From positions 1 through 40,323 of the forward strand of contig DF237677.1 of NCBI GenBank assembly GCA_000708835.1: a DNA stretch of 40,323 nucleotides, read 5' to 3'. Source of the DNA: Klebsormidium nitens. Lineage: Eukaryota > Plantae > Klebsormidiophyceae. The notes beneath the pieces were generated by a model. That model was not told the DNA's origin, made no database searches, and saw only the letters and a program-made list of their open reading frames with translations. Positions 2,203 to 39,097 of the stretch are shown here, one piece after another (the first letter of the stretch is position 1; every line of letters begins with the position of its first letter). Made by a program: the position numbers and the translations under genes.

Positions 2203-3192
2203 ATGGAGCCTGCCCCCGCAGAGCCCATCCTTGCTGCATCCAACGCCAGGTTCACAATGTTCCCAGTCCAGTACCATGAGCTATGGAAACTGTACAAGGA
2301 GGCTGTGGCTAGCTTCTGGACCACAGAGGAGGTGGACCTCAGTGACGACCTTCCCCACTGGGAGAAGCTCACAAGCAAGGAGAGGTTCTTCATCTCACGA
2401 GTGCTGGCATTCTTTGCTGCCAGTGACGGGATTGTCCTGGAGAACCTGGCCCTCAGGTTCTTTGCAGAGGTGCAGATTCCAGAGGCACGGGCATTCTACT
2501 CGATGCAGATGGCGATTGAGACCATCCATTCCGAGCAGTATAGCCTCCTCATCGATGCCTACGTGAAGGACTCTCAGGAGAAGGACGAGATGTTCCGCGC
2601 CATCGACTCCATCGCATGCGTCAAAAGGAAGGCGGACTGGGCAACCAAGTGGATCGAGTGCGGGCGGTCGTTTGGAGAGAGGCTCGTTGCCTTTGCATGC
2701 GTGGAGGGTATCCACTTCTTGGGGTCCTTCTGTGCCATCTTCTGGCTGAAGAAGCGGGGGCTCATGCCTGGCCTTTGTTTTGCCAATGAGCTCATCAGCC
2801 GCGACGAAGGGCTGCACACAGACTTTGCGTGCCAGCTCTACGAGACCCTCCAGGAGAAGCTGCCAGCTCAGACCGTGAGGGACATTGTCACTGATGTTGT
2901 GAAGATTGAGCAGGCTTTCATCAGTGAGGCACTACCCTCTTCATTGATCGGGATCAACGCTGGCCTGATGTCAGAGTACATTGAGTTTGTTGCTGACAGG
3001 CTCTGCCAGCAGTTAGGATACGAGGCAATTTACGGTACCGCCAACCCTTTCGATTTCATGGACCTTCAAAGCCTCGATGGCAAGGCAAACTTCTTTGAGA
3101 GGAAGGTCAGCGCCTATCAGCGGGCAGGGGTCGCCGGTGGACAGAGTTTCGCAGACATGTCAAATATTAGGACATATTATTTGGACTTCTAA
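2203..3192 (+). CDS. RNR2: Ribonucleotide reductase small (beta) subunit
   Basis: Motifs [67 protein letters not shown]; intronless, 329 aa. Confidence 0.97.
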
Positions 3193-4521
3193 AGGTCTAT
3201 GTAACAAGATCAGTAGAATGAAGTCTCATAAGGACAAACGTGGACACAATATATTACTCAATTGGCCTCCTGGAGGGAGCCTGGTGCTCTGTGTGATCCA
3301 TGCGATTGCCCATCATGCCATGCATGTCTGACAGGAGATTATGCAACAATGACGAATGAAGAGAATGTCATCATAGTGGAACGTAAGACATGCTTGATAC
3401 ACACACTTAGGGGAACGCATCTGCTCTTAGAGCACCAACCTACAGATGGATGCTGCTGCTATCACCGTTGCACGGGCCGCCAATCTGGCAACCTACGGGA
3501 ACAACCACAACAAAGAAGCGCAAGGTCTGCGACCGATCTCGCGTGCACTTCAGGAGGACGGCCGTCTCAAGTTCCACAAGTCCTTTGAGAAGGCTCTTGC
3601 TGACTTCTGCGTATATATGCCCGGTTTCCCCGCGCTCGGAGTACAGCTCAAAACCACGGGTGTAAACTGGATACAGAACCGTACAGACTACGAGTACTAC
3701 AGCTTCTCGCAAACTGGTGGATACGCTGGCCTGTTAATGATCTTCGTGGCCCTCCACACGCAGCCCCGCCGCATCTGGCTTGCGGATGGATCCAGGGTGA
3801 CCCGCATGAAGGTTGTGATTCCAGTAACCCTCCGGCGGGCCGTGAGGTGTGACGAAATTCGAGAGATAAAGCTCGCCACCCTGGCAGACGCAATCTACAC
3901 GATCTATATGGCAGCCCTATCAGGCTCTAGCAACTACGTGCTCCGCAGCCCAATGGACCACGAGAAGCCCACGGAACGAAACGCCTTGGCGGAGTACAAT
4001 GCCTTCCAGCGTCTTCAGTGCTCATTACCGGTCCTTTTCATGGACCCTCCAGCCGAGTACCTGAGCTACGATTATATCGTGGATGGCAGAAGGTGGCAGC
4101 TGAAGTTGGCCCGATACAATCGTAAATCTGATTACTACTCCGTGGGCTGCCATAAGCAAGCAGGCAGAGTGAACGGGAAGTGCACACAGAGGCAGTACGA
4201 AGTCGGCGATTTTGATTTCCTCTGCATCCAACTCCCCGAGGCCCCCAAGACCTTGCACTGCTGCTACGTGATCCCGCAGAGCATATTGGCCGATCATGAT
4301 CTCGTCGGCAACGCCACCAAGTCTTCCGGGGCTGTCCTTGTATACCCGGATCGACTGGTGACCGCCAGGAATGCTGTGCACAAACAGGGCGTTCACTGGA
4401 CGGAGACTTATCGCATCGATTTTGCCCGTGACCCGTTGGCACAATTGGCGCGCATTACACAGGGAGCATATCAAAGGGCAGGGGTCAGCAGTCAGAGCTT
4501 CGCAGACATGTCAAACATTAG
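3112..4521 (+). repeat. Direct repeat pair: RNR2 3' end (3112-3170) and endonuclease 3' end (4466-4521)
   Basis: GCCTATCAGCGGGCAGGGGTC...CAGAGTTTCGCAGACATGTCAAATATTAG versus GCATATCAAAGGGCAGGGGTC...CAGAGCTTCGCAGACATGTCAAACATTAG. Confidence 0.92.
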
Positions 4522-4537
4522 CGACGAGGAGTTTTGA
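3446..4537 (+). CDS. Tandem PD-(D/E)xK-type (D...QxK) endonuclease, probable free-standing homing endonuclease; C-terminus copied from RNR2
   Basis: Two nuclease-like motifs, ADFCVYMPGFPALGVQLKT and YDYIVDGRRWQLK. Ends [23 protein letters not shown]. Confidence 0.7.
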   Translation: MDAAAITVARAANLATYGNNHNKEAQGLRPISRALQEDGRLKFHKSFEKALADFCVYMPGFPALGVQLKTTGVNWIQNRTDYEYYSFSQTGGYAGLLMIFVALHTQPRRIWLADGSRVTRMKVVIPVTLRRAVRCDEIREIKLATLADAIYTIYMAALSGSSNYVLRSPMDHEKPTERNALAEYNAFQRLQCSLPVLFMDPPAEYLSYDYIVDGRRWQLKLARYNRKSDYYSVGCHKQAGRVNGKCTQRQYEVGDFDFLCIQLPEAPKTLHCCYVIPQSILADHDLVGNATKSSGAVLVYPDRLVTARNAVHKQGVHWTETYRIDFARDPLAQLARITQGAYQRAGVSSQSFADMSNISDEEF

Positions 4538-4588
4538 GGTGTTGTTAAGAAGAGACAAATTCTTTCCAACATTACAACCATAAGTCAT

Positions 4589-5410
4589 ATGGCAGCTGAG
4601 TTCAAACACGTGCCACTTACCCCAGAGACCAAGAAGCCTGCTCCTCCTCCACCTTACAGCCCGCCTCCTAGCCCTGTGCCCGCCAGAGGCCTCAGATTCT
4701 TCCGTAGGATTCATGAGCAAACGGCTGCTGTCACAGGTGGTGCATGGCAGGCAGTATCTACAGAATTCATTGCAACGTTCATGTTTGTGTACTTGGGTGT
4801 GGGATCAGTAATTGCATGTGGGCTGAGCCCCGACTCTAGGATCCATAGCACATCGGCACTCCTCGCATCGGGCCTTTCAAACGGCCTCGCACTGTCAGTC
4901 GGCACCGCCTTGGGTGCCACCAATGGGGTGGGGCACTGCAACCCATCCTTGACATTTGCCTATGCCGTAACGGGACGGTTGAGCATGCTACGAGCCATGT
5001 ACATGATATTGGCACAATGCGCCGCATCCTTTGGAGCGACCGGGCTTGCAGTAGTAGCATACCCTGTCTCCCTTTCTACCAACCGCCTCCATGCATGGTC
5101 GCTCGAAAGGGCTTTCTTGCTGGAACTGATTGCAGCATGCATCCTCACAATCACATCCATGGGGCTTCGAGCCAAGAAGGGATTGCAAAACCCTGCAGCT
5201 CCTGTTATCATGGGCTTTCTGATGACGGCAAGCATGGTGGCGGTGTCTCCATTTGCTGATGGAACAGTGAATCCCGCACGGAGTCTTGCGGTTGCGGCAT
5301 TCACGGCAGGTTGGAAGGATGCTTGGATCCATGTGATTGCACCACTGAGCGGGTCCATAGTTGGTGCCGTGCTTCACGAACTCATGATTGAAAGTACTGG
5401 TGAACCGTAG
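4589..5410 (+). CDS. Aquaporin / major intrinsic protein (NPS and NPA boxes)
   Basis: TEFIATFMFVYLG, GHCNPSLTF, GTVNPARSL, WIHVIAPLSG; several hydrophobic segments; intronless. Confidence 0.92.
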   Translation: MAAEFKHVPLTPETKKPAPPPPYSPPPSPVPARGLRFFRRIHEQTAAVTGGAWQAVSTEFIATFMFVYLGVGSVIACGLSPDSRIHSTSALLASGLSNGLALSVGTALGATNGVGHCNPSLTFAYAVTGRLSMLRAMYMILAQCAASFGATGLAVVAYPVSLSTNRLHAWSLERAFLLELIAACILTITSMGLRAKKGLQNPAAPVIMGFLMTASMVAVSPFADGTVNPARSLAVAAFTAGWKDAWIHVIAPLSGSIVGAVLHELMIESTGEP

Positions 5411-8781: not shown

Positions 8782-9149
8782 AGAATAGCAAAATTGTTGG
8801 ACGGACAATTTGGGGATTCCGCATGTCTTTCTTATTGGACCACCGACAATGTTTGGTAGCGGCGGTCAGCCAGGTGATGGGTCTGCAAACATTTGTCGAA
8901 CCTGTGTATGAAATGACACGTAAAACCTTTACTCCTGTGCGCTTCTTCTCTACAACATCCCCAAATTGTGTCAGATAGGGTTTATGGTCCCAATGAGTGC
9001 CCACTGTGCTAGCCGCGGCGCCGCACAAGTGCGAGGGTGGCCTTTTCGAGCCCGGTTCTGAGTCAGTTAGGGTTCGGAGGTACCGGTACGAGCATCGAGG
9101 GGGGTCAGTGGGTCCCTACAGCGGCCTACAATGTTTCATTTTTGTGGGG

Positions 9150-9430
9150 GTATGGCCTTACATACATACATATTGGCCTTTGGATTCCACCAGAGAAACT
9201 CTGTACTACTAATCTGTTATATTCTCTCCTCCGAAAAGTAGATTATAATATTGTATCTTTTTGAGGGTATGGCCTTACATACATACATATCACCAATTGG
9301 AAAGCAAAGGGGGAACTCTGTACTACTAATCCGTAATAATTCCTTCCCTGGAGAAGAAAGAAAAAATAACAGATTGTAGTACAAGAGTCCTGGGTTCCCC
9401 CGCTGCTTGCCAATATGTATGTATGCAAGG
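9150..9430. repeat. AT-rich module upstream of topo II: two direct copies (117-bp period) plus one inverted copy
   Basis: GTATGGCCTTACATACATACATAT exact at 9150 and 9267; AACTCTGTACTACTAATC exact at 9197 and 9314; inverted near-copies at 9368-9388 and 9410-9430. Confidence 0.9.
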
Positions 9431-11258
9431 TCCCTTGGAAGAAAAACAAAGAGTTTTGGTATGGGGATTGAAGCCCTCAAATCCGCCCTTTGTATGACTT
9501 TCAAGCTGGCGCCGCCGGGCGTGGGTAGGCAGACCATGGCACACTCAAGCCACAGGCTGCCAATCTGCACTCATCCAGGGCCAACTTTCCTTCCTCCATA
9601 TTGCTTTCATTGTGGCCTGCAGCTCAGAATGTTCCTCTCTGTTCAACATGGCCTCCACTGCTCAGATCTCAGCAACTTACAGGCGCTGCACGCCCATCGA
9701 GCACATCCGAACTCGACCAGACTCCTATGTAGGCTCCGTTGTCCCAGAGCAGACCAGGACCTGGGTCATCGAGGAAGGGCGTGCCAAGGAGAAGGAGATC
9801 ACTGTCGTCCCTGGCCTCTACAAGATTGTGGATGAGATCCTGGTCAACGCAATCGACCAGACAAAGGTGGACCCGACCGTCGACTCCATCAAGGTCGAGG
9901 TTGATGTGGAGGCAGGGCTCATCAGCGTGACCAACAGCGGGCGAGGCATCCCTGTTGTTGAGCACGACTCTTACAATATGTACATACCTTAGCTGATCTT
10001 TGGCAACCTCCTGACCTCCTCAAACTATGATGACTCAGAGTAGCGGACAACCGGCGGGCGCAATGGGTACGGGGCCAAGCTGACCAACGTCTTCAGTCAG
10101 TCCTTTGCTGTTGAGACCCTGGACATAGAGAGAGGCATCAAGTATTGCCAGGTCTGGGAGGACGGGATGTCCAAGTGCAAGCCGCCAAAGATCTCCCGCC
10201 CCAAGAACCCCAAGCACGGCTACTGCAGGATCTCCTTCAAGCCCGACCTAGCTGTCTTCTCCATGGAACGCCTGAACGACGAGTTTGTCAGCCTCCTTCA
10301 CCGGAGGGCCCACGACGCCGCAGCCTGCACGCGGCCGAGCGTGAGGGTGTCTTTCAACGGCAAGAACCTCCCGTCCAAGGGTGGATTTGAGAGCTACTGT
10401 GAGCTGTTTATCGGCCCCAAGAAGGAGGCGCCGCGCGTGTTCTTCCGCCCAAACGAGCGCTGGGAGGTTTGTGTGGCTGCTTCCGCGGACGGCTTCCAAG
10501 CCATCTCGTTCGTCAACGGGGTGCACACGGCTCTGGGCGGCACCCATGTGGAGCACGTGGTTGCGCCGCTCACCCGGAGGGTTGCCGAGACGCTGCAGGG
10601 CAAGGTGAAGGGGGCTACTATCCGGCCAGCACATGTCAGGGAGAAGCTGATGCTGTTTGTGAATGCGACGCTGGTCAACCCCACCTTCAGCTCTCAGACA
10701 AAGGAGATGTGCACACTGAAGGTGAGCCTTTTTGGGAACACGTGCGACGTGCCTGACGAGGTGGTTGGCAAGGTGGTGAGCAAGCTAGGGATTGCTGAGG
10801 CGATCGTCGCAAAGGCGAGGGAGCGAGAGGCCAAGACCCTGTCACGAACGGACGGGAACAAGACGGGCGTCATCAGAGGGATCCCAAAGCTGGAGGATGC
10901 CAACAAAGCAGGTGGCAGGCGGAGCTCCGAATGCACGCTCCTGGTGGTAGAAGGGGACAGCGCGCGTGCTTTCGCCATGGCAGGGCTCTCGGTGGTTGGC
11001 AGGGATCTGTATGGGGTCTTTGCCCTGCGGGGGAAGATTCTCAACTGCAGGGACGCCCCAATCAAGGCCATCGCTGAGAACAAGGAGATTGCCAACCTCA
11101 AGCAGATCCTGGGCCTCCGAGAGGGCCACAAGTACAAGTCGCTCTCCGAGCTGCGCTACGGACGAGTCATGCTCCTCACGGATGCTGACTGCGATGGCAC
11201 GCACATCCGGGCGCGCTTCCTCAACTTTGTTGAGTTTGGCTGGCCGGAACTCATCGAG

Positions 11259-11391
11259 GTGAGCCACACATCCAGTGAGGGCTCTCTGACAATGGTATGC
11301 TGGATTTCCGCAGTCTTGTATCTGCTCGTGCCTTTGTCTGCCGCCGTCCCTGCCTCCTTCTCCATTCAAAAGTACAACGATTCTTTTGCAG
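11259..11391 (+). other. top2 intron 1 (133 nt, GT-AG, phase 0)
   Basis: GAG/GTGAGC ... TTCTTTTGCAG/CTG joins WPELIE to LGFAWH. Confidence 0.88.
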
Positions 11392-11521
11392 CTGGGGTTT
11401 GCGTGGCACCTGAGGACCCACGTGGTCAAGGCGTTCAAGAACAGCCAGACGCGTGCGTTCTTCACGGAGCGACAGTACAGGGAGTGGGCACAGACGAGCG
11501 AGGCCCGTGGTACCTGGCGCA

Positions 11522-11992
11522 TCAAGTTCCTGAAAGGTGTGGGCTCCCAGGGACTCGGTACCTCCCGGGGCCAGTCAACCCCTCCCTTTCGTCTTGGACC
11601 GGCTGGAAACCATAGCGCATGTAGAGGGCCTGTAGCCTGCTCAAGAGTGCGTCTTCGCCTGTAGGCTGCTCTTCGGCCAAAGGATAGCAGAAAAGCTGCA
11701 CTTCACTGATACCGAGGGAGTACATGTGCGCGAGTGCGGTGTTCAGCAGCAGAAACGAGAGTCCCAAACCCCGGAACGGTCTGGCGACACCCATAAGGCT
11801 TATGTATGCACTTGTCTCAAAGAGCTGATAGTTGAGGTATGCAATCTTTTGAGGAATGGCTCTGATTGCTGCGCCTGTGGTGAGCAATTCGATGGTCCCA
11901 GCAGCAAAATCATGGCGAGTCCTGACCTTCTGTTGGCTCAAATCTGAAACCGGCACCTGGACAAGCGGCTCTAGGCGGGCCACCATTGCCAT
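11522..11992 (-). CDS. GNAT-family N-acetyltransferase nested antisense in top2 intron 2
   Basis: YISLMGVARPFRGLGLSFLLLNTAL (acetyl-CoA motif A), GISEVQL and LYMRYGF. ATG at 11992 or 11986; the stop overlaps top2 exon 2 by 15 nt. Confidence 0.85.
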   Translation of the reverse strand: MAMVARLEPLVQVPVSDLSQQKVRTRHDFAAGTIELLTTGAAIRAIPQKIAYLNYQLFETSAYISLMGVARPFRGLGLSFLLLNTALAHMYSLGISEVQLFCYPLAEEQPTGEDALLSRLQALYMRYGFQPVQDEREGLTGPGRYRVPGSPHLSGT

Positions 11993-12045
11993 ATCTCTTG
12001 ACCCTCTACCCAAAGAGCACTGTCCTAAGCCCATGGGCGATGCAG
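11537..12045 (+). other. top2 intron 2 (509 nt, GT-AG, phase 1), containing an antisense GNAT gene
   Basis: AAAG/GTGTGG ... GATGCAG/GTCTGGGC restores IKFLKGLGTSTAKDAK. Confidence 0.82.
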
Positions 12046-12471
12046 GTCTGGGCACGTCCACTGCCAAGGATGCCAAGGATATCTTCAGCAACATGAGCAA
12101 GGTCACGTACACGACCGACCCCGGGGCGGCAGCGGCCATGCAGCTGGCCTTCCAGAAGGCAAGGGCAAACGACAGGAAGAGGTGGATTGTTGAGGCGATC
12201 GCAAAACCAGCGCCGGAGCCAGTGGGAGAGCGGGTGACCCTCTCGGAGATGGTGGACACCGAGCTGGTCAACTACTCCATCGCCAATGTCCGGCGCTCCA
12301 TCCCCAGTGCAATCGACGGTCTGAAGCCCTCGACGAGGAAAATTGTCCACGTCAGCATCAAGAGAAACGTTCGGGAGGAGTTCAAGGTGGCCCAGCTAGC
12401 CGCAGCGGTCGCAGAGGGGAGTGCATACCATCACGGTGAGAAGCGAACCTCTTGCGCAGATGGAGCGCATG

Positions 12472-13222
12472 AGCAAGTGATTTCAACCCCCCTCCTATAG
12501 TCAAAAAAGGGGGGTCCCAAATTCTCAAACACTTTTCAAAATTAGTCTCCATCCGTGTTTATGCGTGAGCTTGCCGTGACCTACAAACCTATGCTTTCTT
12601 ACCGGAATGGTTATAGTGTGCTGGGAACTACCAAGTCTTAGGTCTTAGCTCTTCCTTCAGGGATGGCTTCAACACGCGTGCGCGCATAAGCAAGTCATTT
12701 CAACCCCCCTCCTATAGTCAAAAAAGGGGGGTCCCAAATTCTCAAACACTTTTCAAAATTAGTCTCCATCCGTGTTTATGCGTGAGCTTGCCGTGACCTA
12801 CAAACCTATGCTTTCTTACCGGAATGGTTATAGTGTGCTGTGAACTACCAAGTTTTAAGTCTTAGCTCTTCCTTCAGGGATGGCTTCAACACGCGTGCGC
12901 GCACAAGCAAGTGATTTCAACCCCCCTCCTATAGTCAAAAAAGGGGTCTCCCAAATTTCAAACACTTTTGAAAATTGCGCTCCATCCGTGTTTGTGCGTG
13001 AGCTTTCCGTACACTACAGACATTTAATTTCTTACTGGAATGGCTATGGAACGCTGTGAACCGTAAGTTTTTGGTGCAGGGATGGCTTAAACACACGTGC
13101 GCGCATAAGCAAGTGATTTCAACCCCCCTCCTATAGTCAAAAAAGGGGTCTCTCAAATTCTCAAACACTTTTGAAAATTGCGCTCCATCCGTGTTATGCG
13201 AAAAGGTTGGCCGTTGACTACA
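12472..13222. repeat. Non-coding tandem array, units of 217, 217, 202 and about 115 bp
   Basis: AGCAAGT(G/C)ATTTCAACCCCCCTCCTATAGTCAAAAAAGGGG starts at 12472, 12689, 12906 and 13108. Copies 1-2 have an ACCCCCCT/AGGGGGGT stem. Confidence 0.95.
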
Positions 13223-13223
13223 A

Positions 13224-13745
13224 TCAGACAACCCTTCGGAAATTGGAAGTGTTGAGGGTCTGACGGGTGAACGGGTTTCTCGCACCCTCGTGCAACCTTT
13301 GTAATGCGTCTTTGTGATACGCCCTCGGAGCCTTTCCACCCCTCAACTCGCTTTCAAGGTAGATGTAGTTCCTCCGGTTTGCGGGGCGCTTGTTCAAGGC
13401 CATGAAGTTTGTGTTGATGAAGTCCGTATCATTCGAGACGGCGCCTGCTCGACCGTTCCGCACACTAGCCATGTTAAGGCGCCTATGACAAGGAGCAACC
13501 TCCATAGTTGCAGGAGTCTCGTAACCGACGACACTGCGAGGCCCTTCGGAATGCAACGCCCAGACAACGAGGTCGCTCAATGACCACTCATCGTGCATAG
13601 GAGGCTCACCTGACTCCACGTAAACGACTTCAAAGAGCTCTGGTGCTACCAACCGAGCGGACGTGGTGGCACCGTTCTCATGCTGCAGCTGGATGACGTC
13701 TCCAACGTCCATATAACGCAAGGTCTCCCAGATCTCCCTCTCCAT
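13224..13745 (-). CDS. Hypothetical viral protein nested antisense in top2 intron 3; C-terminal D-F-I...Y...L...NPFTRQ motif
   Basis: Intact 173-aa ATG ORF. The C-terminus (NDTDFINTNF...YIYL...YHKDALQRL...RNPFTRQTLN) resembles short U-box-like tails seen in algal-virus proteins (recalled, not searched). Confidence 0.72.
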   Translation of the reverse strand: MEREIWETLRYMDVGDVIQLQHENGATTSARLVAPELFEVVYVESGEPPMHDEWSLSDLVVWALHSEGPRSVVGYETPATMEVAPCHRRLNMASVRNGRAGAVSNDTDFINTNFMALNKRPANRRNYIYLESELRGGKAPRAYHKDALQRLHEGARNPFTRQTLNTSNFRRVV

Positions 13746-13904
13746 TCAGCATAACACAGAACCAGAATTTACTTTTTGTTGCAGGTGAGGAGAGCCTGAG
13801 CGGCGCCATCATCAACCTTGCGCAGACGTTTGTGGGATCCAACAACCTCAACCTGCTCGAACCGGTCGGAATGTTTGGAACACGCCTGGCCAACGGGAAG
13901 GACA

Positions 13905-14184
13905 GTGAGTGCACTGCGTTTGAGCCGTGTTCAAAACCTACGTGCCAATGAAGGACAGCATGTCAGCCAAGTCACTGGTGGGAGCCCCTCACTACGCCAC
14001 CCTGGCATCATGTTACAGGCCTGTGGTGGCAACCAAAGCGCTCGGCATGCAAGATGCCGCGTGTCTTGCAGCTCATGGCGCAGCCCTCTCTGCATGCTGG
14101 TACATTGCCAATGACTATCTCGAACGTCAAAAGCTGAAGGAGAAGCGCAGGCAGCTCCTTAAGAAGCAACTTGGGCGACCGCAG
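13905..14184 (+). other. top2 intron 4 (280 nt, GT-AG, phase 1)
   Basis: GACA/GTGAGT ... CCGCAG/GTGCC restores NGKDSAAPRYLFT, five codons before the catalytic Tyr. Confidence 0.88.
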
Positions 14185-14217
14185 GTGCCGCGCCGAGATA
14201 CCTCTTCACGCACCTGA
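13948..14217 (+). CDS. Possible small protein nested in top2 intron 4 (hydrophobic segment plus basic coiled tail)
   Basis: 89-aa ATG ORF spanning most of the intron, with coding-like codons (YLERQKLKEKRRQLLKKQL); runs 33 nt into exon 5 in another frame. Confidence 0.4.
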   Translation: MKDSMSAKSLVGAPHYATLASCYRPVVATKALGMQDAACLAAHGAALSACWYIANDYLERQKLKEKRRQLLKKQLGRPQVPRRDTSSRT

Positions 14218-15212
14218 CAAAGGCTGCGCTCTGCGCCTTCCATCCTGCCGACGCCCCCCTCCTGACCTACCTCGAAGAGAACGGCAAGGCCATAGAGCCG
14301 GCCTACTTTGTCCCGACCGTGCCCTTGATCCTCCTGAACGGTGCCTCCGGCATTGGCACTGGCTTCTCCACGTACGTCCCCAACCACGCTCTGGAGGACG
14401 TCATCGCCAACATCCGGGCTATGCTGCAAGGCCTGGACCCGGTCGAGATGCACCCTTCCTGGGCTGGCTTCAAGGGGACCGTCCGGGCGACCGAGAAGGG
14501 AGAGTACGTCGTCTCCGGGGTGTACGAGAGGATCGACAGCAGCCGCATCCGCATCACTGAGCTGCCAGTTGGGACGTCAATCGACGCCTACAAGGCTTTC
14601 CTGGAGAGCGACAAGCTTGGGGCCCGTTCCATCAAAAACGACTGCACGGACGCGGTTGTTGACTTCACCGTGGAGTTCAGCACCGGGAGGCTCGAGGCCA
14701 TCCTGCCTGACATCGAGAGGGAGCTCTGCCTCACCAGGAAGCTGAGCACCAACAACATGCACCTGTTCGACTCGAACGGCCACATCAGGCGCTTCGAGAC
14801 CGTGACCGACATCCTGCGGGAGTTCTTCGGGGTGCGGCTGAGCCTCTACGAACGCCGCCTGCTGCACCTGATCCGACAAAAGGAAGAGGAGCTGGCTGCC
14901 TGCTCCTACCGGGCGCTCTTTGTGACGAGTGTGCTTGATGGGGGTGTCCGACTCCTGAAAGCCAAGGTGGCGGACGTCCGTGCCGACATGAGCGCGGCAG
15001 GGATCCCCGAGACCTACCATCAGCGGTTCATGTCGCTCCCCCTGTCAAGCCTGACGGCGGACGAGGTGGAGAGGCTCTTGGCAGCCAAAGAGGCCCTGGT
15101 GTCAGCCCTTGACCTCCTCAAGGGCAAGACGGCCCCGGCTCTGTGGGAGGAGGACCTGCTTGAGTTGGAGAGAGCGCGGAAAATTGGAGCATAGATAGCC
15201 TGGTTGCTTGGT

Positions 15213-17821: not shown

Positions 17822-18622
17822 ATGCTTCCAACCGATTGCATCCGAGGCATCAAGATGAGGATTGCTGCCCGAGTGCCTACACCCCCGGGGGCCATCTTCT
17901 ACACACTCCGAAGCGACGCGACCGGGATGTTTGACTCCTTTTACCGGCTCCGTTACGACCAGAGGGCCCTGGGCCGCTGCCTGATTGACCCAAGTAGCTG
18001 GACGATCATGCATGATTTCGGCCAAACGTGCCCTGGGGAGGACCCAAGGTGCATCTCGCACAGGGGCACGGACTACCTGCTGGACAACACCTGGGGCAGC
18101 AGCAGCTTGATCGTGCCAGCTGACAACTTCAAAGTGTGCAAGCTTCCCTCAAAGGGCAAGAACCTTAGCCTCATCTCTCACGGTGACGAGCTCCTCTGCA
18201 TCGAGTGGCTCCGACCCCTGACCGTTCTGTCAACGAGCGAGTCGCCCTACCCTGATACTTGGAGGCGGACAAGGGCCCGGAAGGAGATTCCGGACTACAG
18301 CCTGCGCGGTGGCACCCCTGGTTACAAGACCCCGGTCGACGGTGTATATGTCGGCTTTGGGCACCGGACGACGGCAGGCCCCAAGGGTGAGGTCAAACAC
18401 ACCCCATTTGCATGGCGGCTGGATGTCAAGAATTGGCAGATGAGCTTTGAAGAGGTGGGGGGGCAGCTCGAGCGGGCTATCACATACCCCACCTGTGTTG
18501 CACATCACAACGGGAGGCTCTACTTGGTCACTGCAGAATCCCACCTTCCCTGGTTCGGTGCCCTTCAGGAATTCTTTACATGCATATATGAGCTGCATTT
18601 CGGAGAAAATACAGCGGTATAG
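17822..18622 (+). CDS. Putative five-bladed beta-propeller glycoside hydrolase/phosphorylase (GH130-like)
   Basis: GEDPR motif, KN-hydrophobic motif, LRGGTP...YVGFGH. Confidence 0.55.
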   Translation: MLPTDCIRGIKMRIAARVPTPPGAIFYTLRSDATGMFDSFYRLRYDQRALGRCLIDPSSWTIMHDFGQTCPGEDPRCISHRGTDYLLDNTWGSSSLIVPADNFKVCKLPSKGKNLSLISHGDELLCIEWLRPLTVLSTSESPYPDTWRRTRARKEIPDYSLRGGTPGYKTPVDGVYVGFGHRTTAGPKGEVKHTPFAWRLDVKNWQMSFEEVGGQLERAITYPTCVAHHNGRLYLVTAESHLPWFGALQEFFTCIYELHFGENTAV

Positions 18623-18629
18623 GAGGCAC

Positions 18630-19643
18630 ATGGGGCTGTGCATTGGGAAGCAGAGAGAGCATGGGACTCAAGATCAACAACCATCGCCAGAGCAGGTTGT
18701 GCCAAGGGCAACCCTGTCAAACAAGGAGTTTGGATTCAACCAGCACTTTAAGGACATGTACACGGTCAAGGAGGAGATTGATCGCGGATCGTTTGGCAGG
18801 ACGCACATCGCAGAGGCCAAGTCACAAAAGGGTGGCACTGTGGCCGTAAAGATCATCCCAAAGAGCTCCATGATCAGTGAGGCCGCAATTATGGACGTGC
18901 ACAGAGAGGTCCAGATACTGAGCCTGCTGTCAGGCCACGAGGGGATAGTGGAGTTTATGGCAGCTTACGAGGACTTGATGAACGTGTACATTGTGATGGA
19001 GCTATGCCAAGGTGGTGAGCTGATGGATCACATCCTCAGCAACCAGGGGCCATACAAGGAGGCAACCGCAATCGAGCTGGTGTGGCAGATCCTCACGGCA
19101 GTTGCCTACATGCATGAGAAGAAAGTCATCCACCGCAACATCAAGCCTGAAAACTTCATCTTTGCCAACGAGAAGGACAACATCATAAAAGCGATAGACT
19201 TTGGGCTCTCCTACCGGTGTGAGGAGAACGAAACTATCAAAGAAGTGGTGGGCAGCCCATTCTTTGTCGCACCAGAGGTCCTAAAGCAGGCCTACAATCT
19301 CAAGGCAGACGAGTGGAGCGTGGGGATCCTGACCTACATCCTGCTGATTGGAACACGGCCATTCTTTGGGAGGACGGACTCGGAGATCTTCAAGGCCGTG
19401 CTGAGGGACGAGCCTGACATTGACAACGCGGACCTCAGCCTGCCCGCAAAAGACTTTCTGAAACGGCTGCTCAACAGGAACGTTGAGTCCAGGGCAACAG
19501 CAAGAGAAGCCTTGGATCACCCTTGGCTCAGAGATAGATCCGCAATGCCCGTTCAACAGGGCTGCGGCAGTAATGACACATGCTCCGCCCTCGATAGCAC
19601 TCGTCACATATGCAATGACCGCACGGAATCATTGCAAACCTGA
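18630..19643 (+). CDS. CDPK-related (CRK-like) Ser/Thr kinase domain without EF-hands; catalytic HRD reads HRN
   Basis: MGLCIGK myristoylation/palmitoylation-type start, VAVKII, YIVMELCQGGEL, HRNIKPENF, DFGLS, APEVL, EALDHPWL. Confidence 0.85.
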   Translation: MGLCIGKQREHGTQDQQPSPEQVVPRATLSNKEFGFNQHFKDMYTVKEEIDRGSFGRTHIAEAKSQKGGTVAVKIIPKSSMISEAAIMDVHREVQILSLLSGHEGIVEFMAAYEDLMNVYIVMELCQGGELMDHILSNQGPYKEATAIELVWQILTAVAYMHEKKVIHRNIKPENFIFANEKDNIIKAIDFGLSYRCEENETIKEVVGSPFFVAPEVLKQAYNLKADEWSVGILTYILLIGTRPFFGRTDSEIFKAVLRDEPDIDNADLSLPAKDFLKRLLNRNVESRATAREALDHPWLRDRSAMPVQQGCGSNDTCSALDSTRHICNDRTESLQT

Positions 19644-21388: not shown

Positions 21389-21670
21389 ATGGCTTCTCAA
21401 GTCAAGAAGTACAGGCTAGAGCGGAGGCAGGTCATGAAGTCTGAGAAGGACCACACCTCGTCGGGCCTCAGGAAGGATGACCTTATGTACAAGAGTCATG
21501 ATGGAAAGTCCAGGACTATCGTGTCCCGCAAGAGGCACGAGAATGCCTTGAACAATCCTAAACTCCAGGCGTGGTTGGACCACGTCAAGAGCGTTTACGA
21601 AGACATCAAACCCCTCGGCAAGACATACAAGGATGCCATGCAGCTCGCTGCAGCCACCTACAAACGGTGA
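21389..21670 (+). CDS. DVNP-like (dinoflagellate/viral nucleoprotein) basic DNA-binding protein
   Basis: T-S-S-G-L-R-K-D-D-L-M ... IVSRK ... L-Q-A-W follows the DVNP pattern T.GGL.K.DL...IVSK...W. Confidence 0.72.
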   Translation: MASQVKKYRLERRQVMKSEKDHTSSGLRKDDLMYKSHDGKSRTIVSRKRHENALNNPKLQAWLDHVKSVYEDIKPLGKTYKDAMQLAAATYKR

Positions 21671-21707
21671 AGTACCATGCCACTTTTTCTACCCGTATCA
21701 CAGAACG

Positions 21708-22535
21708 ATGATTCTCTTCCTTGTGCTCCTATCTTTAAGCAGCTGCGTAGTTTCTCAGGAGCAGGGCTGGCTGGCGGGTACCGCCACTTACTACACAGGA
21801 GTTGACGATGTGTCCGGCGGTTATGCTGGAAATTGCGGCTTCTCAGATCTCAGCCGCAACATTGCTGGGATCCCGGGGGCCACCTACGGCCCTCTCTTTG
21901 CAGCCGGCAGCGATCAACTCTACAAGGGCGGAGCAAACTGCGGGGCATGCTACGAGATCAAGTGTCTAGAAAACCCTGTGTGTACCGGCAAGACCATCCA
22001 GGTCACCATCACCGATTACTGTCCGACTCAGGGCAACGAGCAGTGGTGTGGGGCCGATAAGCACCATTTCGACCTCTCGGGAAAAGCATTCAGCGAGCTG
22101 GTCAGCACGATGGCGATCGGCCACTTTGAGCTGCAGTACCGCCGAGTGCCTTGCAAGAAGACGGGGCCGCCTGTTGTATCAATCGAAGGCAATCCCTACT
22201 GGCAATCCCTTCGAGTCCTGAACTTGGCAGGTGGGGGCGCGTATAATGCGATGCTCATCCGCTCACCTGGAGGCCAGTACGTCCCGTTGAAGCGGGACTG
22301 GGGCACGAGCTTTGTTCACAATGGTCAAATTCAGGCTCCAATCTCGGTGAAGCTCTTGGTTAATGACCCAAAGAGCGAGGTCGAACTGATTGATTGCGTG
22401 CCAGTGGGATGGGTTGGCGGAGAGTACGCTTGCAAGGACAGCAGTAGTACTGTACACACGCCAGAGAGCAGGAGGATGACGATCCAGGACAACAAGCAGC
22501 GCCTCCAATGCAACTGCACGTGTGCCACCTTCTGA
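21708..22535 (+). CDS. Secreted plant-type expansin (DPBB plus CBM63 domains)
   Basis: Signal peptide; ATYY, GNCG, CGACYEIKC, TITDYCP, HFDLS, YRRVPC, LKRDWG. Confidence 0.9.
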   Translation: MILFLVLLSLSSCVVSQEQGWLAGTATYYTGVDDVSGGYAGNCGFSDLSRNIAGIPGATYGPLFAAGSDQLYKGGANCGACYEIKCLENPVCTGKTIQVTITDYCPTQGNEQWCGADKHHFDLSGKAFSELVSTMAIGHFELQYRRVPCKKTGPPVVSIEGNPYWQSLRVLNLAGGGAYNAMLIRSPGGQYVPLKRDWGTSFVHNGQIQAPISVKLLVNDPKSEVELIDCVPVGWVGGEYACKDSSSTVHTPESRRMTIQDNKQRLQCNCTCATF

Positions 22536-26376: not shown

Positions 26377-29300
26377 CTAGAACACATCTTGAATAAACAG
26401 CGCCCAAAGCTCGGCCGAAAATGCAAAAATTGTGGCGCACTGAGGCCACAGCATGCTCCAGTGCCTCTTCCCTAGTTTGCGCGTAAGGGCTAAACTCAGG
26501 CCCATGCCCCCGGCCAAAACCGCTCCTTGAAGCAAACCCACAACGGAAGGGTCAGCAACCGCAATTGGGAGCCCCGAGTCTCGAAAGCCCACCGTCGCTG
26601 CTGTGACCGGGAGAAGGGTTCCCCCCTCAACGAGGAGAAGGGGCAAATAGTGGGCTAGCGTGGCGCTCCACACTAGCGGCAAGTATCCATATGCCAGGTG
26701 CAGAAAGGGTGCGGGTGCGAGAGTCCGTTGGGTGTGGTGGTACAGGCGATTGAGGGCATCGACGCAATATGAGATGACGCCCGGGAGCGATAGGAGACCG
26801 GCGGCAACCGCGATGTGAATGGGCTTTGAGTCGATCAGGATGGGGTCAAAACCGAACTGGCTCAGAAGGTTTGGCGCTCGGTGGAGGTAGACTGCAGACA
26901 CAAAGCAAATGAACGGCCTGAGACTTCAAAAGGGGACCCTCAGAGTCCAAAAGCGGAACGTTTCCTTGACTGATTCATAGTTAAGATCGCTTGCATAAGT
27001 GTGCGTGCAGACGTGGGATAGATAGATTGGAAACGGACCAAAGATGAGCGTTAAATGTAAAAGTAGAAAATCGGAAATCGGAACTCTTATCTGACAGATC
27101 CATATCTCAACGACGAAGAAATGTAACTGTATCCGCATGACCATGTGTGGTTTGAATGCAGGAAAGAGACTATAGGCGTGCCAAAGCAGGACGTCAACGT
27201 CTAAGACACGACTTTTGATATTCAGATACTTGACCTCGCTTACTTGCAAAACGAAACCAAATACTTGCCAAAACCGCCTCGATCAAATACAAAGCCGTCT
27301 CGGATCACACAAACCGGCATCGATCACTTGCACAGCCGCTGCATCAATCCAACCTCCAAAAGCGATGCCAAAGAGGACAGAAAGTATAGGGAGAGAAGCG
27401 AGGCACGTTGTGCTCAAATTCTCCAAGAGAGACAATACGTAAGGGGAACTGGGCTGAGGCAAAATAGATGGAAGCCAAGTAGAGAAACACCTCTTGCTTG
27501 AGAGCATGGCGCAGTCTCCGATACGGTCAATTTATGGTGGTCCATGTTCAGCTTAGGGTTTACAATCGAAAGCGAGAGATTAGGTAAAGAGGGAAAACAT
27601 ACCTCGGTCCAGGCGCATAGACATGAGCACAATATCGAACACAGCCAGCTTGTGGGCAGTCCAATGCTGGATTGACTCTTCATAGTAAAGGGTAGATGAG
27701 GAAGACCAGTTTGACGGAAAGTCAAAGCGAAAACCATACATCCGCCGAGAAAAAAGAACGTGAGCGCGACCTCTGTCGCAGCCGGCTTGTGGCTGGTTCA
27801 CCTGACTTTTCTCAAGGAGACAAGCGTGAAACAGAACGTGAGATAAGGAAGGTAGAAGCGAACTACACCTCCGCCTAGGAGCATGAACATGAGGGCGACC
27901 TCCGACACGGCCGGCTTGTGGGTCGTCCAGAGATCGACCCCGGGGGCCCTCAGGTTGAACTGCACGCTAGTGTGAGGGCACGCTTTGAGGCAGTCCATAC
28001 ACAGGGTGCAGTCCTTGTTGTCGACCAGCTGGGCGGGGTGGGAGTGGAGGGGACACCCCGAGGTCTTCAGGCCCTCGGGGGGCTCCGCGGGGCCTCCCTT
28101 GTAGCAATGGTACGTCTGACACGTGGCTGCAGGTGGATAAAAACATGTCAGCAGGAGCTGTTGTTGTTTTCTTCAACTTCCCTGCTTGTACTCTGCTCTT
28201 AAGATCCCTTCCCTGCAATTCTTTTCACCGTCGTTCCCCCGTCCTATGATCTTACAATCGCACTCCTATAGAATTCCTGCGCAGTGGTCAGAGCGAAGGG
28301 GGCAGACTCCGTCGCTAGGCCCTCTTGGTTTGTCCTTATAGTAGTGATACGTCAGCCGAATTGGCCGCAAGCAAGTACTCAATGATCAAGTGCGCACGTA
28401 CAGCAATGTACGGCAGACCCAGACAGATGTTCGAAGGAGGGGGCGCCCAAATGATGAGTCTTTTCAGGATAAAGAGAGTCTCTTCCTGCAAAGAGACCAC
28501 GTGTCTCTATCTCGCCAACACCAGATGTTGCATCCAATGAGCGACTTGGCTTGGGACAGGTCTTCTGGCACTCAAAGACCCCACAGATCTTCGAGCAATG
28601 CCCAGCGTTTGGAGATTGCTCCGAGAATGTTGGCCTCTCAGACACTTTCCAAACGCTAGGGATTGGGTCTCCCTTCTCAACCGAACACACCATTGGCTTG
28701 CACGCAATTCCAATCTTGATTCTTAGCGGAGAGGCCGTTTTACATTACGAAGGCACAACAGCGGCACCTGCTAATCCTCGGCACCAAATCTATTCTGGCC
28801 GCCTACAATCTTGAGCTCCTAAGATTCTGAATTAAGTGCGCTCCTTGTCCGAGCACACGCCCTGCCGTGCAAGCAACTCTCGGATCGAAGTCTTAGCGAA
28901 GAAGGCAGTCATGTCATCTTTTGGGCACCAGCTAGCCCGTGCTCGGAAACTGCTGGGAAGTAAGCGCTACGAATAAAGGCGTCGAGATTTTGCTGTTTAC
29001 TCGTTAGCTCAGTACATGCCCTGTAATGACCGCAACTTCCGCCATTAACAATCTCGCAAAGAGGCTGTTCAGGTTGCGCAGCAGGAGAGGAGCTCGCTTT
29101 GTGCCGAGAACTTCACAGCATTCGAGTGCTAAAAGTTCGAAGAATTGGGCCCTTCTTTCAGTCCACAGCAAGGAAACCCACTTGCCACTTGCGTACTCCC
29201 GACATTGTCGTCTTAGCAATAGGGCCGTTCATGCAGCCAGTTTTGCACAGATAGCGGCATCACAGGTGGCGCTCAAAGCGGCCACCTACGAATGGCGCAT

Positions 29301-32300
29301 ACAATTTGAGGCTCTAGGGTTGTGTGTCAATCCTGAGCACATGCCTAGAACGCACGTATTTCCATCTTCAATCTTCGACATCTTGGCGAACAGGCACTTC
29401 AGAGCGCTAATCAGCACAGAGAACAGGCGCTCTGAAGTGGCTACTAAATTTAAACGCGTCAAATTCGAGGTCCTAAAAATTGGAATCACTCCTCACCTGA
29501 GCACACGCCCTGCCGCGCGCGCACTTCCGTCATCGACATTTTAGCAAATAGGCCGTTCATGCCCCCAATGGGGCACAGGTACCGGCACCAGAGCCGGCGC
29601 TCAAAGATGGCAGAACAGATGACGGCGCCTGACGTGATGAGGATGAGGAGGCCGCCAGAGAGTGCGGCATGGGTGCTGAGGTGCCATACATCCTCCCAAA
29701 GTAGGATCCCGGCGAACATGGCAAACAAGAACCAGGGACCCCATGCTTCAGCTGCAAGGAGAACATGGTTGATCTCTTGTCGCCTTGAAGGGATAAGGCC
29801 TTGAACACCCAATAAGAGACCAAAATATGAGCAAAGCGAGCAGAGAAGTGGAAATAGGGGTACCAGCAAGCTGACAAAGAAGCGTGGGTGCAGAGGTTGG
29901 CCCTCGTAGAAGTCCTTCTTTGGAGGATTGAGAATCAAAGGGAAAGAGGTTGCAGAACGTGCGGCTGGTTGCGTTGGTCCTAACACCTGAGCGTCGAAAG
30001 AAGCAAGGTCTTCGCAAATGTGGACACGTTCCTAAGTTCTGCAAGCAATACCGGATTAAAAATAGGAACTGAGCCCACTGCACCTGTCTCCCGAGGCCAC
30101 TTCAAGAGCTGGGCGCCCCTACTGAGCCGCCACCTCTGTACCAATTCTCCATAAATCATGAAGGGACATACTGCAGTAGCAGAGATGGGTAGGTCAGATT
30201 GTAGAAACCGGTGGTCATGGTAAGCTTGCATATATATTACTCGAAAGCTGACAAGACGGAGATTTGAAGGCCTTCAAAGCGGATGTAAACCAACGAGTCC
30301 ACACTGTGCTCCTAGAAACGTCCTGCGGGGTTACAAGTTGTCCGGAGAGTACGTCGGCTCCTTGGGAGACGCGAGAAGAGAAATCCGTGTTTTGGACTTG
30401 TAATGTGACGTTATTGCAGAAGCATCTGCGCAAAGTCTTTTGAGCACACTCTTTTGGATGTCATTGGAGTTAACGAGTGTGTCAGAACAAGAGGCTGTCC
30501 ACTCTGCTGAATCAAAAATCGAGACGTTTAGGTGCCAGGCGAGTTATAAATCCTGGTACAATGTTTGGACTCAGAAGACAAGCCCTAAACTGGAAGGCTC
30601 ATAAAAGCACAGGCCACGATTGGGCTAAATACCGTCAAGACGATGTTCCGCCCGATAAGGGCCCAAAACCAGAAAGCCGCAGATAGGAAGGAAACAAGAG
30701 GGGTTGATGAGCGGATTGTACTAGCGCACCAGATGTGGCTCAGGAAGGGTTGGCCTAGACAGGTGGGCCCAGAAGAGCGTCGATCAACATCATAAGAGTC
30801 GTTCAATAGAGATGAACAATCAATCCGCAACAAGAGGGAAAATGACAAAAGCTACCGTGCACCAGAGGCGGCCTGCGAACGGGTAGAACAGGAAGACCAA
30901 AGTGGTCAGAGTAGAGCTACGATGATGTCGAGGCAAAGAAATAGATACAAAATTGGAGAAGGAGCCTTACTAGCACACCATACGCGGCCCAGGAACGGGT
31001 ACATGAGGAAGATGACCGGCCACCAGTAGGCCCAGAACACAGTCAGAACGACATTGTGCTCCCGGTCCTGGGGCCCGAATAAGAGGAGGCACACCCCTAT
31101 GGCAAAGGCGTAGGCGGTGAAGCGGAAGTTAATCTCCTTGGGCCAAATGTCGCTCCGGAGAAAGGTGCGCAGGGGGGGGTACGCCTTGAGGAGGTCGAGC
31201 CGGAAGGGGTCATGCCCTTGCTGCGAAAGATGCGGCCAGGCTTAAAGTGCCACTTGCAAGCGCAAAGCAAAAACGAAGCTCTTTGGCTTTCACAACTGAC
31301 GAGTAACCGGACAGGAAGTATGTTCAATGTGCCGGGTACCAAACTAAGTCAATTGAAAGGTTGTAGACACTGATGGACGTACCTAGGCCTATAGGCCCAT
31401 GCAAAGCTCGACGAACTTTTCATGCACATAAGACTCATTCCCCCATCAAAACCACAGTTCCAAAACTAATTCCAAACCTTGGACCTATGAAAGGCCAAAA
31501 GCAACCAGCGTTGAAGACTCTTTGCACTTGCTCAACGCAAAACCCAAGCCTCTAAAAATGAACCCATACCTTGGTCGTGTCCCACAGGACGTCCGCAGTC
31601 AGCTGCGTCTCGTCGTCCTGCACGTTGCCTGCCGCCCTCTCAAGGACTGCCTGGAGCTCCTTGATGTTGCCCGGGAAGGGGCTCGTTTCTAAAGTGCGCA
31701 GTGCATCGGAGGTGGGCACGATGGGCTGTGAGCGGTGCTCGAGGCAGTACTGCTTCAAAAAGTAAGCGGTTAGGTCGGGGATGTCGGAAGGGCGCACTCG
31801 GAGTGGGGGCACCTGAAAGGACGAAATACGGGATCTAAAAGTTGAAGTGGGAATAGAAAAGTAGAAGCAGAAAGGAATAAAAGTGAGTAATAAAGTATTG
31901 GTAACAGACAGACTGAGAAAGTACTTGCAACACGCACTTGGACAATGAACAACCCCGATTCTACCTTCACCAATGCAACTGGGCGATCGAGGCACCAGAA
32001 GTTGGCGCTTAGGTTGGCAATGTTGGAAAGGTGCACCTGGAGCGGGTGACAGAACAACGCAAACGATGTCTTATTCGTCTTGCTATCTGTTACTTGAATT
32101 GACTGAATGGAATCAAATGTAACTTTGTGTTCCATACTGCACTCTGTCAACCGAGCAACCTTCAGAGGAGCGGTTAGGGGGAGAATGTTAAAAGGGCACA
32201 CATGGAGGGGAACCAGAAGTGGAATGAAACCCTTGCTCATCCAAAACTCGGTACTCCAATGAGAGTGTCTGTTTCTAAGCATATTCGATATACCTTGCAT

Positions 32301-37142: not shown

Positions 37143-37590
37143 ACCCATACATACATATTCGCTACTCTCCAGTGGGAAAGAAAGGAGTTCTACTGTGCCA
37201 ACTGTTATAACTATTTTGCACAAAAGTCTGTATATACATATCCTTTACTCTTTTGGAAAAGAAAATACATCTACTGGGACTACTAGTAAAACTTTCTTAC
37301 ACAAAAGTATGTATATACATATTCGTCACTCTTTTGAAAAGAACAATTCCCTACTGGGTCTATTGTTATGATTTTGTTACACTGGATACATGTGTGAGAA
37401 ATCTATAAGAGTAGAGGTAGGACCAACTTTTGGAACCGGCAGATGTTGGAGGAAAATGTTAGTATGTACCTATGTTCTCCCTTCTCGATAAAAGATGCAA
37501 GTTCCCTAATGTGTGAAAAAATTATAACAGTAGCAATAGTACAAACTTTCCGGCTGGCTACCAGGTGAAGGAGTCCTATGTATGTAGTCT
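37143..37590. repeat. AT-rich module: about 80-bp direct units plus inverted remnants, related to 9150-9430
   Basis: CATACATACATATT at 37146; ACAAAAGT(C/A)TGTATATACATAT...ACTCTTTTG.AAAG...CTACTGGG at about 37220 and 37300; TATGTATG on the other strand near 37576. Confidence 0.7.
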
Positions 37591-38325: not shown

Positions 38326-39097
38326 NNNNNNNNNNNNNNNNNNNNNNNNNNNNNNNNNNNNNNNNNNNNNNNNNNNNNNNNNNNNNNNNNNNNNNNNNNN
38401 NNNNNNNNNNNNNNNNNNNNNNNNNNNNNNNNNNNNNNNNNNNNNNNNNNNNNNNNNNNNNNNNNNNNNNNNNNNNNNNNNNNNNNNNNNNNNNNNNNNN
38501 NNNNNNNNNNNNNNNNNNNNNNNNNNNNNNNNNNNNNNNNNNNNNNNNNNNNNNNNNNNNNNNNNNNNNNNNNNNNNNNNNNNNNNNNNNNNNNNNNNNN
38601 NNNNNNNNNNNNNNNNNNNNNNNNNNNNNNNNNNNNNNNNNNNNNNNNNNNNNNNNNNNNNNNNNNNNNNNNNNNNNNNNNNNNNNNNNNNNNNNNNNNN
38701 NNNNNNNNNNNNNNNNNNNNNNNNNNNNNNNNNNNNNNNNNNNNNNNNNNNNNNNNNNNNNNNNNNNNNNNNNNNNNNNNNNNNNNNNNNNNNNNNNNNN
38801 NNNNNNNNNNNNNNNNNNNNNNNNNNNNNNNNNNNNNNNNNNNNNNNNNNNNNNNNNNNNNNNNNNNNNNNNNNNNNNNNNNNNNNNNNNNNNNNNNNNN
38901 NNNNNNNNNNNNNNNNNNNNNNNNNNNNNNNNNNNNNNNNNNNNNNNNNNNNNNNNNNNNNNNNNNNNNNNNNNNNNNNNNNNNNNNNNNNNNNNNNNNN
39001 NNNNNNNNNNNNNNNNNNNNNNNNNNNNNNNNNNNNNNNNNNNNNNNNNNNNNNNNNNNNNNNNNNNNNNNNNNNNNNNNNNNNNNNNNNNNNNNNN
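38326..39097. other. Assembly gap (772 N)
   Basis: Run of N. Confidence 1.

Follow-up and report, generated by a model that had tools for sequence, protein, structure and literature searches.

Predicted introns with antisense cargo genes at fixed sites of an endogenised nucleocytovirus-like topoisomerase gene in Klebsormidium nitens

Results

A virus-like segment carries a decaying type IIA topoisomerase gene

The stretch of DNA analysed here, 40,323 nucleotides of contig DF237677.1 of Klebsormidium nitens, is referred to as the window, and positions are counted from its first letter (Table 1). Its left 25 kb are gene-dense and virus-like, and dense viral genes are joined to intron-rich host DNA and show decay in the form of stop codons in the topoisomerase gene (top2), as in a giant endogenous viral element. 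Insertions of nucleocytoviruses are on record for green algae (PMC5294986). The cyanobacterial affinity of the host gene in the right part of the window (Table 1) is in line with a photosynthetic eukaryote, likely a green alga, as the host. One host intron contains two degenerate duplicates of an exon of the host (motif RYLC...GMNG; 28850-29277, minus strand), and a short degenerate telomere-like repeat with the unit GAAACCCT... (33998-34041) likewise lies inside a host intron; an assembly gap of Ns is located at 38327-39098. Two small direct-repeat pairs, one in the viral part (9127-9338) and one in the host part (37173-37334), have a TACATACATA-type motif in common and are possibly one repeated host element.

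Table 1. Features of the window and their positions. A slash marks a splice junction here and in the text.
Feature	Position	Strand	Remarks
Ribonucleotide reductase (RNR) small subunit, cap methyltransferase, RING protein	left 25 kb of window		assigned by Pfam search
Aquaporin (MIP)	4538-5410		plant-type cargo in viral segment
Protein kinase	18444-19643		plant-type cargo in viral segment
Expansin	21552-22535		plant-type cargo in viral segment
Type IIA topoisomerase (top2)	9648..15194	+	five predicted exons
Predicted intron 1	11259..11391	+	133 bp, phase 0, junction identity 4/9
Predicted intron 2	11537..12045	+	509 bp, phase 1, in K-G/G-L-G-T-S
Left copy, intron 2 junction repeat	11535..11544	+	AG/GTGTGGGC, contains donor
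Right copy, intron 2 junction repeat	12044..12053	+	AG/GTCTGGGC, contains acceptor AG and Gly-Leu-Gly codons
GNAT-like acetyltransferase ORF (putative)	11522..11992	-	156 aa, nested in intron 2
Predicted intron 3	12436..13784	+	1349 bp, phase 1, in H-H-G/G-E
Left 9-mer, intron 3	12435..12443	+	G/GTGAGAAG, ordinary donor; last base inside the insert's inverted repeat
Right 9-mer, intron 3	13784..13792	+	G/GTGAGGAG, conserved Gly-Glu codons and one more
Secondary insert in intron 3 (likely)	12443..13211		inverted repeat around tandem array
173-aa ORF	13224..13745	-	nested in intron 3, conserved family
Predicted intron 4	13905..14184	+	280 bp, phase 1, junction identity 3/9
Host gene with long spliceosomal GT-AG introns	26377-35232		nearest prokaryotic relatives cyanobacterial
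Control host-gene intron donor	29489..29497	-	G/GTGAGGAG, 9/9 identical to intron 3 right 9-mer

The top2 gene encodes the Pfam domains HATPase_c, DNA_gyraseB, Toprim, TOPRIM_C and DNA_topoisoIV. Once four predicted introns are removed, 1091 codons can be read as one continuous frame that is interrupted by two in-frame TAG stops (9990 and 10041), and the edges of the five exon blocks agree with tblastn searches using three intron-less viral top2 proteins. Decoding of these TAG codons as Gln was set aside, since the 1091-codon frame contains only two of them and TAG also terminates further ORFs of the segment (e.g. at 15194). The nearest viral top2 matches are ~51% identical. PhoH, asparagine synthase and minor capsid P2 are among the gene neighbours of the best of these matches; accordingly, the virus of the segment would be a nucleocytovirus. 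We conclude that top2 is a decaying, endogenised nucleocytovirus-like gene.

Junctions of the predicted introns

The positions of the introns, their GT-AG ends and the frame restored by their removal can be read directly from the DNA. Introns 2 and 3 both interrupt a Gly codon in phase 1. The initial annotation had interpreted the junctions of these two introns as near-duplicated 9-mers resembling target-site duplications (TSDs), and its description of the letters was accurate: GGTGTGGGC is present at 11536 and GGTCTGGGC at 12045, GGTGAGAAG at 12435 and GGTGAGGAG at 13784, each pair is 8/9 identical, and the offsets of 509 and 1349 equal the lengths of the GT-AG introns. It also held that introns 1 and 4 are devoid of near-duplicate junctions, which agrees with their identities in Table 1. 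At intron 2, the repeat actually comprises AGGTGTGGGC and AGGTCTGGGC, which are 9/10 identical with the AG/GT included.

Related contigs possess other sequence at the site of intron 1. Intron 4 is located five codons upstream of the Tyr residue of the catalytic motif (KD/SAAPRY). A sense ORF of 89 aa in intron 4 (13948-14217), in which a hydrophobic stretch is followed by a Lys/Arg-rich one, has no Pfam match. The intron 4 region is common to an X6 contig, whereas in an X5 contig the sequence before 14164 is different.

The junction matches were assessed against a null of splice donors, i.e. nine donors belonging to window genes other than top2, or 14 upon addition of five from top2 introns of the window and relatives. 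This null is a small version of the comparison of within-site with random pairs, which serves as a TSD test for introners in PMC9860276. One control host intron (34180-32969) gives no open frame and the position of its donor is therefore uncertain; it was kept in the pool. Given G/GT, the probability of at least 8/9 identical positions is 0.048-0.079 for intron 3 and 0.002-0.005 for intron 2, based on small matrices of 9 or 14 donors. Corrected over the four top2 introns, the value for intron 2 is still about 0.01-0.02, with the caveat that introns 2 and 3 had originally been picked after their junction match was seen. The control host-gene donor listed in Table 1 agrees in all nine positions with the right-hand copy at intron 3; at the right copy of intron 2, none of 14 control donors exceeds 7/9. 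Measured against ordinary donors, the similarity at intron 3 thus falls within the null, whereas that at intron 2 lies beyond it. The initial annotation had cautioned that GGTGAG also matches the donor consensus. This caution is justified for intron 3, where GGT GAG represents the conserved Gly-Glu codons as well. Hence, the match at intron 3 is likely a coincidence of the donor consensus with Gly-Glu codons, while the repeat at intron 2 may be a genuine relic of a duplication.

Occupied and empty sites in related top2 genes

We compared 149 top2 loci, comprising 69 viral contigs and the best 80 of 195 metagenome matches. Intron-less orthologues with a single copy of each target, for which the initial annotation had proposed to look, were indeed found: KGLGTS is uninterrupted in 140 and HHGE in 133 of the 149 loci. 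Since the empty sites keep one copy of GGN YTN GGN (site 2) and GGN GAR NNN (site 3), the right-hand copies are fixed largely by the conserved protein. The idea that both introns arose by insertion is supported as far as insertion into an uninterrupted site is concerned; the further assumption of an introner with TSDs fails at intron 3, while a TSD is plausible at intron 2, where the repeat exceeds the donor null.

A search with exon 3 retrieved ten proteins, six of them close, to which cluster members added three further close ones; no locus was obtained from metagenome_contigs. The nine close database relatives are 74-86% identical to the window in exon 3. Eight of them read into an intron at site 3, and P0020 is empty, reading HHGEESL at the protein level. 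Five different intron starts occur in these eight relatives (E-D-S, K-G, E-S, K-S and A-Y), implying GTGAG, GTAAG or GTGCN donors, and an 83%-identical X6 contig reads G/GTGAG-TACTGC. Among the relatives, only P0022/P0023 can reach 8/9 at this site (G-E-D-S versus G-E-E-S), and two lineages with this ability, the window being the other, are slightly more than expected under the null. P0020 has introns 2 and 4 although its site 3 is empty: like P0029, it reads ...AGLGTS, representing an acceptor at the intron 2 site, and it reads KDS-ERP, representing a donor at the intron 4 site. In the best tree, P0020 is nested among the bearers of the site 3 intron (96/95), but monophyly of these bearers is not rejected (p-AU 0.34); therefore, a single gain followed by loss and repeated gain both stand.

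Site 2 contains the same intron in X5 and X7 (~95-96% identity) and an 81% variant in X6 and X7, while another X6 contig has a different intron, which starts with GTG-CGTGGC and matches the right copy of the window in 5/9 positions. An empty site 2 was encountered in none of the close relatives, and knowledge of the ancestral target therefore comes from distant orthologues alone (~40-52% identity). No joint skipping an intron was detected in the contigs, which are short, of X5, X6, X7, X8 and X9. Occupied sites, empty sites and differing intron bodies are seen directly in these data, and judging from the predicted introns, the same top2 sites are occupied across the viral clade with changing bodies and antisense passengers.

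Antisense genes within introns 2 and 3

Both introns carry an antisense ORF with homologues. The ORF in intron 2 extends across the intron donor and stops within exon 2. Its match to PF00583 (E 0.001, 19.8 bits) is below the curated cut-off of 20.7; five of nine matches are full-length homologues, 36-46% identical in alignment, and one is named GNAT by its source. We regard the antisense product of intron 2 as a putative GNAT-like acetyltransferase. P0004, a GNAT homologue with 48% identity, ends Y-T-N-L-S-G-T-stop, and the ORF of the window ends in the same LSGT-stop. Read on the opposite strand, the last codons of exon 2 give L-S-G-T-stop, so that P0004 most likely sits in the intron 2 of a diverged virus. 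The donor implied for P0004, G/GTTNGTRT, would be between 3/9 and 8/9 identical to its own right copy, and the 5' end of intron 2 is heavily diverged between the window and P0004. For three of the five GNAT homologues, the source and the size of the longest contig (3257, 23299, 6302) equal those of a top2 exon 3 relative, which is indirect evidence, from matching source and longest contig and not from DNA, that GNAT and top2 lie together in relatives. Near its start, intron 2 contains another in-frame G-L-G-T-S, which was considered as an older duplication and dismissed: P0004 does not allow it, and its G-T-S results from the reverse complement of a G-R-Y motif that P0005 and P0009 retain. The cargo ORFs of introns 2 and 3, alignment A1 and P0007 detected no locus when used as queries against viral_contigs.

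The 173-aa ORF of intron 3 has homologues in three clusters (45-52% identity) and no Pfam match. Its structural model is mediocre (pLDDT 64). Resemblance to Sm-like proteins (Foldseek E 0.05 or worse; VIA Z ~4 versus Z 7.0 for the best unrelated structure) and to NleG/U-box proteins (atlas 0.83-0.84, recognition below threshold) provides weak leads that the protein might be U-box/NleG-like or Sm-like, and it could still be a novel nuclease.

In addition, intron 3 contains a likely secondary insert, in which an imperfect inverted repeat (12443-12469 versus 13179-13211; score reached by 1/2000 shuffles) encompasses a tandem array of a 217-bp unit (3.5 copies, 12465-13200). The contig depth of the array is 46-113 versus ~5 for the rest of the gene in X5/X6, and the array bounded by the inverted repeat is high-copy in runs X5, X6 and X9. 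A 97%-identical X5 contig stops matching the window at 12441, with 12 letters left over. The multicopy inverted repeat starts at 12443, just beyond the end of this match; the final matching base of the left-hand 9-mer at intron 3 thus likely belongs to the later insert.

Comparison of introns 2 and 3 with introners, shintrons and self-splicing introns

Terminal inverted repeats (TIRs) were not detectable at the intron ends, as shuffled sequences reach the observed score in 96% (intron 2) and 61% (intron 3) of cases. Many introner families are devoid of TIRs, and a lack of TIRs alone does not exclude an introner. The 3' ends of the two introns are unrelated to each other, and similarity of the 5' ends (p 0.03) falls on a run of C residues inside the later repeat. 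No second copy of intron 2 or 3 was found by blastn in the 40-kb window, and neither cargo represents a transposase or a recognised nuclease according to Pfam and fold comparison. At intron 3, the null probability, the 9/9 host donor and the differing relatives speak against a locus-specific TSD beyond the splice consensus; at intron 2, the low probability on 9-14 donors is accompanied by only 5/9 in another intron at this site. An intron-less allele with a single target exists for site 3 in P0020 and for both sites in distant orthologues, which would be true of any gained intron. By these sequence comparisons, introns 2 and 3 do not look like an introner family.

Rfam searches detected no group I or group II intron; the only match is a sub-threshold snoRNA match in exon 3. 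The predicted GT-AG ends and the lack of group I/II structure are features of shintrons, and no nested homing endonuclease gene (HNH, GIY-YIG, VSR or PD-(D/E)XK) was recognised in introns 2 or 3. As with MING-1, the insertion sites in a core gene are shared by related viruses and the cargo is not a recognised nuclease.

Possible site-directed traffic elsewhere in the segment and in distant top2 loci

About 60 bp at the 3' end of the RNR small-subunit gene occur in two copies (3112-3173 and 4466-4525), which differ mostly at third positions and flank a PD-(D/E)XK-like ORF (3446-4537, plus strand). One copy of the RNR C-terminus forms, in frame, the end of this ORF; RNR uses the other copy. This ORF, the sole PD-(D/E)XK-like one in the window, is free-standing, adjoins RNR and looks like a homing endonuclease gene that brought along a replacement gene end. 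The possibility that the RNR insertion is a spliceosomal intron was rejected, as by eye no GT donor restores the frame. An intein at GQFG/C, i.e. approximately ten codons before intron site 4, is present in 11 of the 149 top2 loci, all of them distant viral ones (L023, L029, L031, L033, L050, L051, L053, L102, L118, L133, L144). The PD-(D/E)XK-like ORF with its RNR duplication and the inteins near site 4 suggest site-directed traffic in this virus; a nuclease or recombinase acting on the intron sites was not identified in the window.

Discussion

The initial claim of two introner TSDs proved mostly ordinary, one of the two matches reflecting splice consensus against conserved codons. The better finding appears to be fixed-site, cargo-carrying predicted introns in the top2 gene of a nucleocytovirus. 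We give a probability of roughly 0.55 to the reading that these are spliceosomal introns at fixed top2 motifs with antisense genes, in which the repeat at intron 3 is coincidental and the repeat at intron 2 is the relic of a ~10-bp duplication. Among the observations in favour, the read-through of the GNAT-like ORF into exon 2 is kept in P0004, and a second insertion in the viral segment, at the 3' end of RNR, likewise has part of its target gene duplicated on its flanks. According to this model, each intron would have begun as a DNA insertion at a G/GT proto-splice site in the virus lineage, before its entry into the host genome. At site 2, the insertion may have filled a staggered break and left AGGTCTGGGC on both sides; as these copies would supply GT and AG, host spliceosomes could excise intron 2 cleanly. 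Spliceable introns might then have served as slots in which antisense accessory genes did no harm. Intron bodies would have been replaced, probably via recombination through the conserved flanking exons, while their positions persisted. After integration, the multicopy inverted-repeat element would have landed beside the intron 3 donor and top2 would have gained its stops. We infer all of these mobility steps as well as splicing itself.

It is conceivable, albeit doubtful, that both junction matches are due to chance, the introns being old cargo introns at fixed sites where degenerate host donors meet Gly codons with G-rich conserved codons downstream. In host donors, G is frequent at +6 and T occurs occasionally at +4, one donor reaches 7/9 at site 2 and one even 9/9 at site 3, and the X6 intron at site 2 scores only 5/9. 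As the 5' end of intron 2 has diverged between the window and P0004, an ancient duplication could have been erased. Chance is hard to reconcile with the probability at site 2, which is 0.002-0.005 per intron and ~0.01-0.02 over four top2 introns, and with the T at +4 in the window and the implied T at +3 in P0004, both of which are off-consensus and toward the Leu codons. We consider it unlikely that both repeats are true duplications from one site-directed process, namely a cut of the homing-endonuclease type followed by staggered repair, and have mostly decayed toward the donor consensus. The location of all four introns in or beside conserved top2 motifs, the inteins near site 4 in 11/149 loci, G-E-D-S versus G-E-E-S in P0022/P0023, the nesting of the empty P0020 among intron bearers (96/95) and the PD-(D/E)XK-like ORF with target duplication in the same segment are consistent with such a process. 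However, site 3 is within the null and its last matching base in the later insert, monophyly of the intron bearers is not rejected (p-AU 0.34) and neither cargo is a recognised nuclease.

The original proposal, according to which introns 2 and 3 are introners, i.e. non-autonomous DNA transposons whose 9-bp TSDs are reused as splice sites, draws on the 8/9 matches at exact offsets and on single-copy empty sites, and splice sites derived from TSDs as well as introners in integrated viral genes have been described (PMC9860276, PMC12130899). Nonetheless it seems quite improbable to us, given that there are no TIRs, no real similarity of the ends and no second copy in 40 kb, that the cargo is GNAT-like or of an unassigned family rather than a transposase, and that the same sites are occupied across the viral clade, unlike in scattered transposition. 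A gain of the introns from the host after integration, as part of the decay of an inactive viral relic, would agree with the two stops in top2 and the multicopy repeat inside intron 3, but relatives with 14-26% divergence in protein use the same positions and the GNAT read-through is common to a 48%-identical homologue, rendering this scenario very improbable.

The preferred reading, that of fixed-site introns with antisense cargo, has parallels in known systems, each with clear differences. In the case of MING-1 of Mirusviricota, as described in PMC12768974, long spliceosomal introns of viruses likewise occupy an exact and conserved site of a core gene and enclose a non-nuclease gene. Unlike there, the target is top2 and not terminase, the cargo is GNAT-like or belongs to the 173-aa family, the bodies differ among relatives at one site, and the virus is nucleocytoviral-looking and endogenised. 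Shintrons, the spliceosomal homing introns of the same report, share the GT-AG ends, the lack of group I/II structure and the conserved viral gene targets, but no HNH, GIY-YIG, VSR or PD-(D/E)XK gene was recognised in the introns studied here. Introners resemble intron 2 in that splice sites can be recruited from duplications of 3-9 bp (PMC9860276, PMC12130899) and the repeat at intron 2 would supply both sites; here, in contrast to the introners of these accounts, there is no family of similar introns in the window, the sites are fixed instead of scattered, and the cargo is unrelated to transposition. Short direct repeats also flank introns gained by repair of staggered double-strand breaks (PMC2809761, citing Li et al. 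2009). A single-copy insert with a short flanking direct repeat over the splice sites fits intron 2, whereas the insert is old, viral and gene-carrying here. Finally, host-type GT-AG introns occur in the integrated viral genes of punuivirus-type algal endogenous giant viruses (10.64898/2026.10.09.758095); those introns average 176 bp, and the terms nested, antisense and topoisomerase are absent from the main text of that report.

We tentatively raise the possibility, which we would not yet call probable, that a clade of algal nucleocytoviruses uses fixed intron sites in top2 as swappable slots for antisense accessory genes (an acetyltransferase and a possible ubiquitin-ligase-like protein), with intron 2 keeping its founding 10-bp duplication, without an encoded nuclease and outside the mirusviruses. 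The literature covered, consisting mostly of open-access main texts, contained no account of top2 introns with nested genes in nucleocytoviruses. The origin of new spliceosomal introns is a long-standing question, and gene-carrying viral introns have been described only recently, in mirusviruses. If true, a second virus phylum with cargo introns at fixed sites would provide a comparative series of empty, differently filled and same-cargo alleles, and such a series would allow birth by duplication and later exchange of cargo to be tested.
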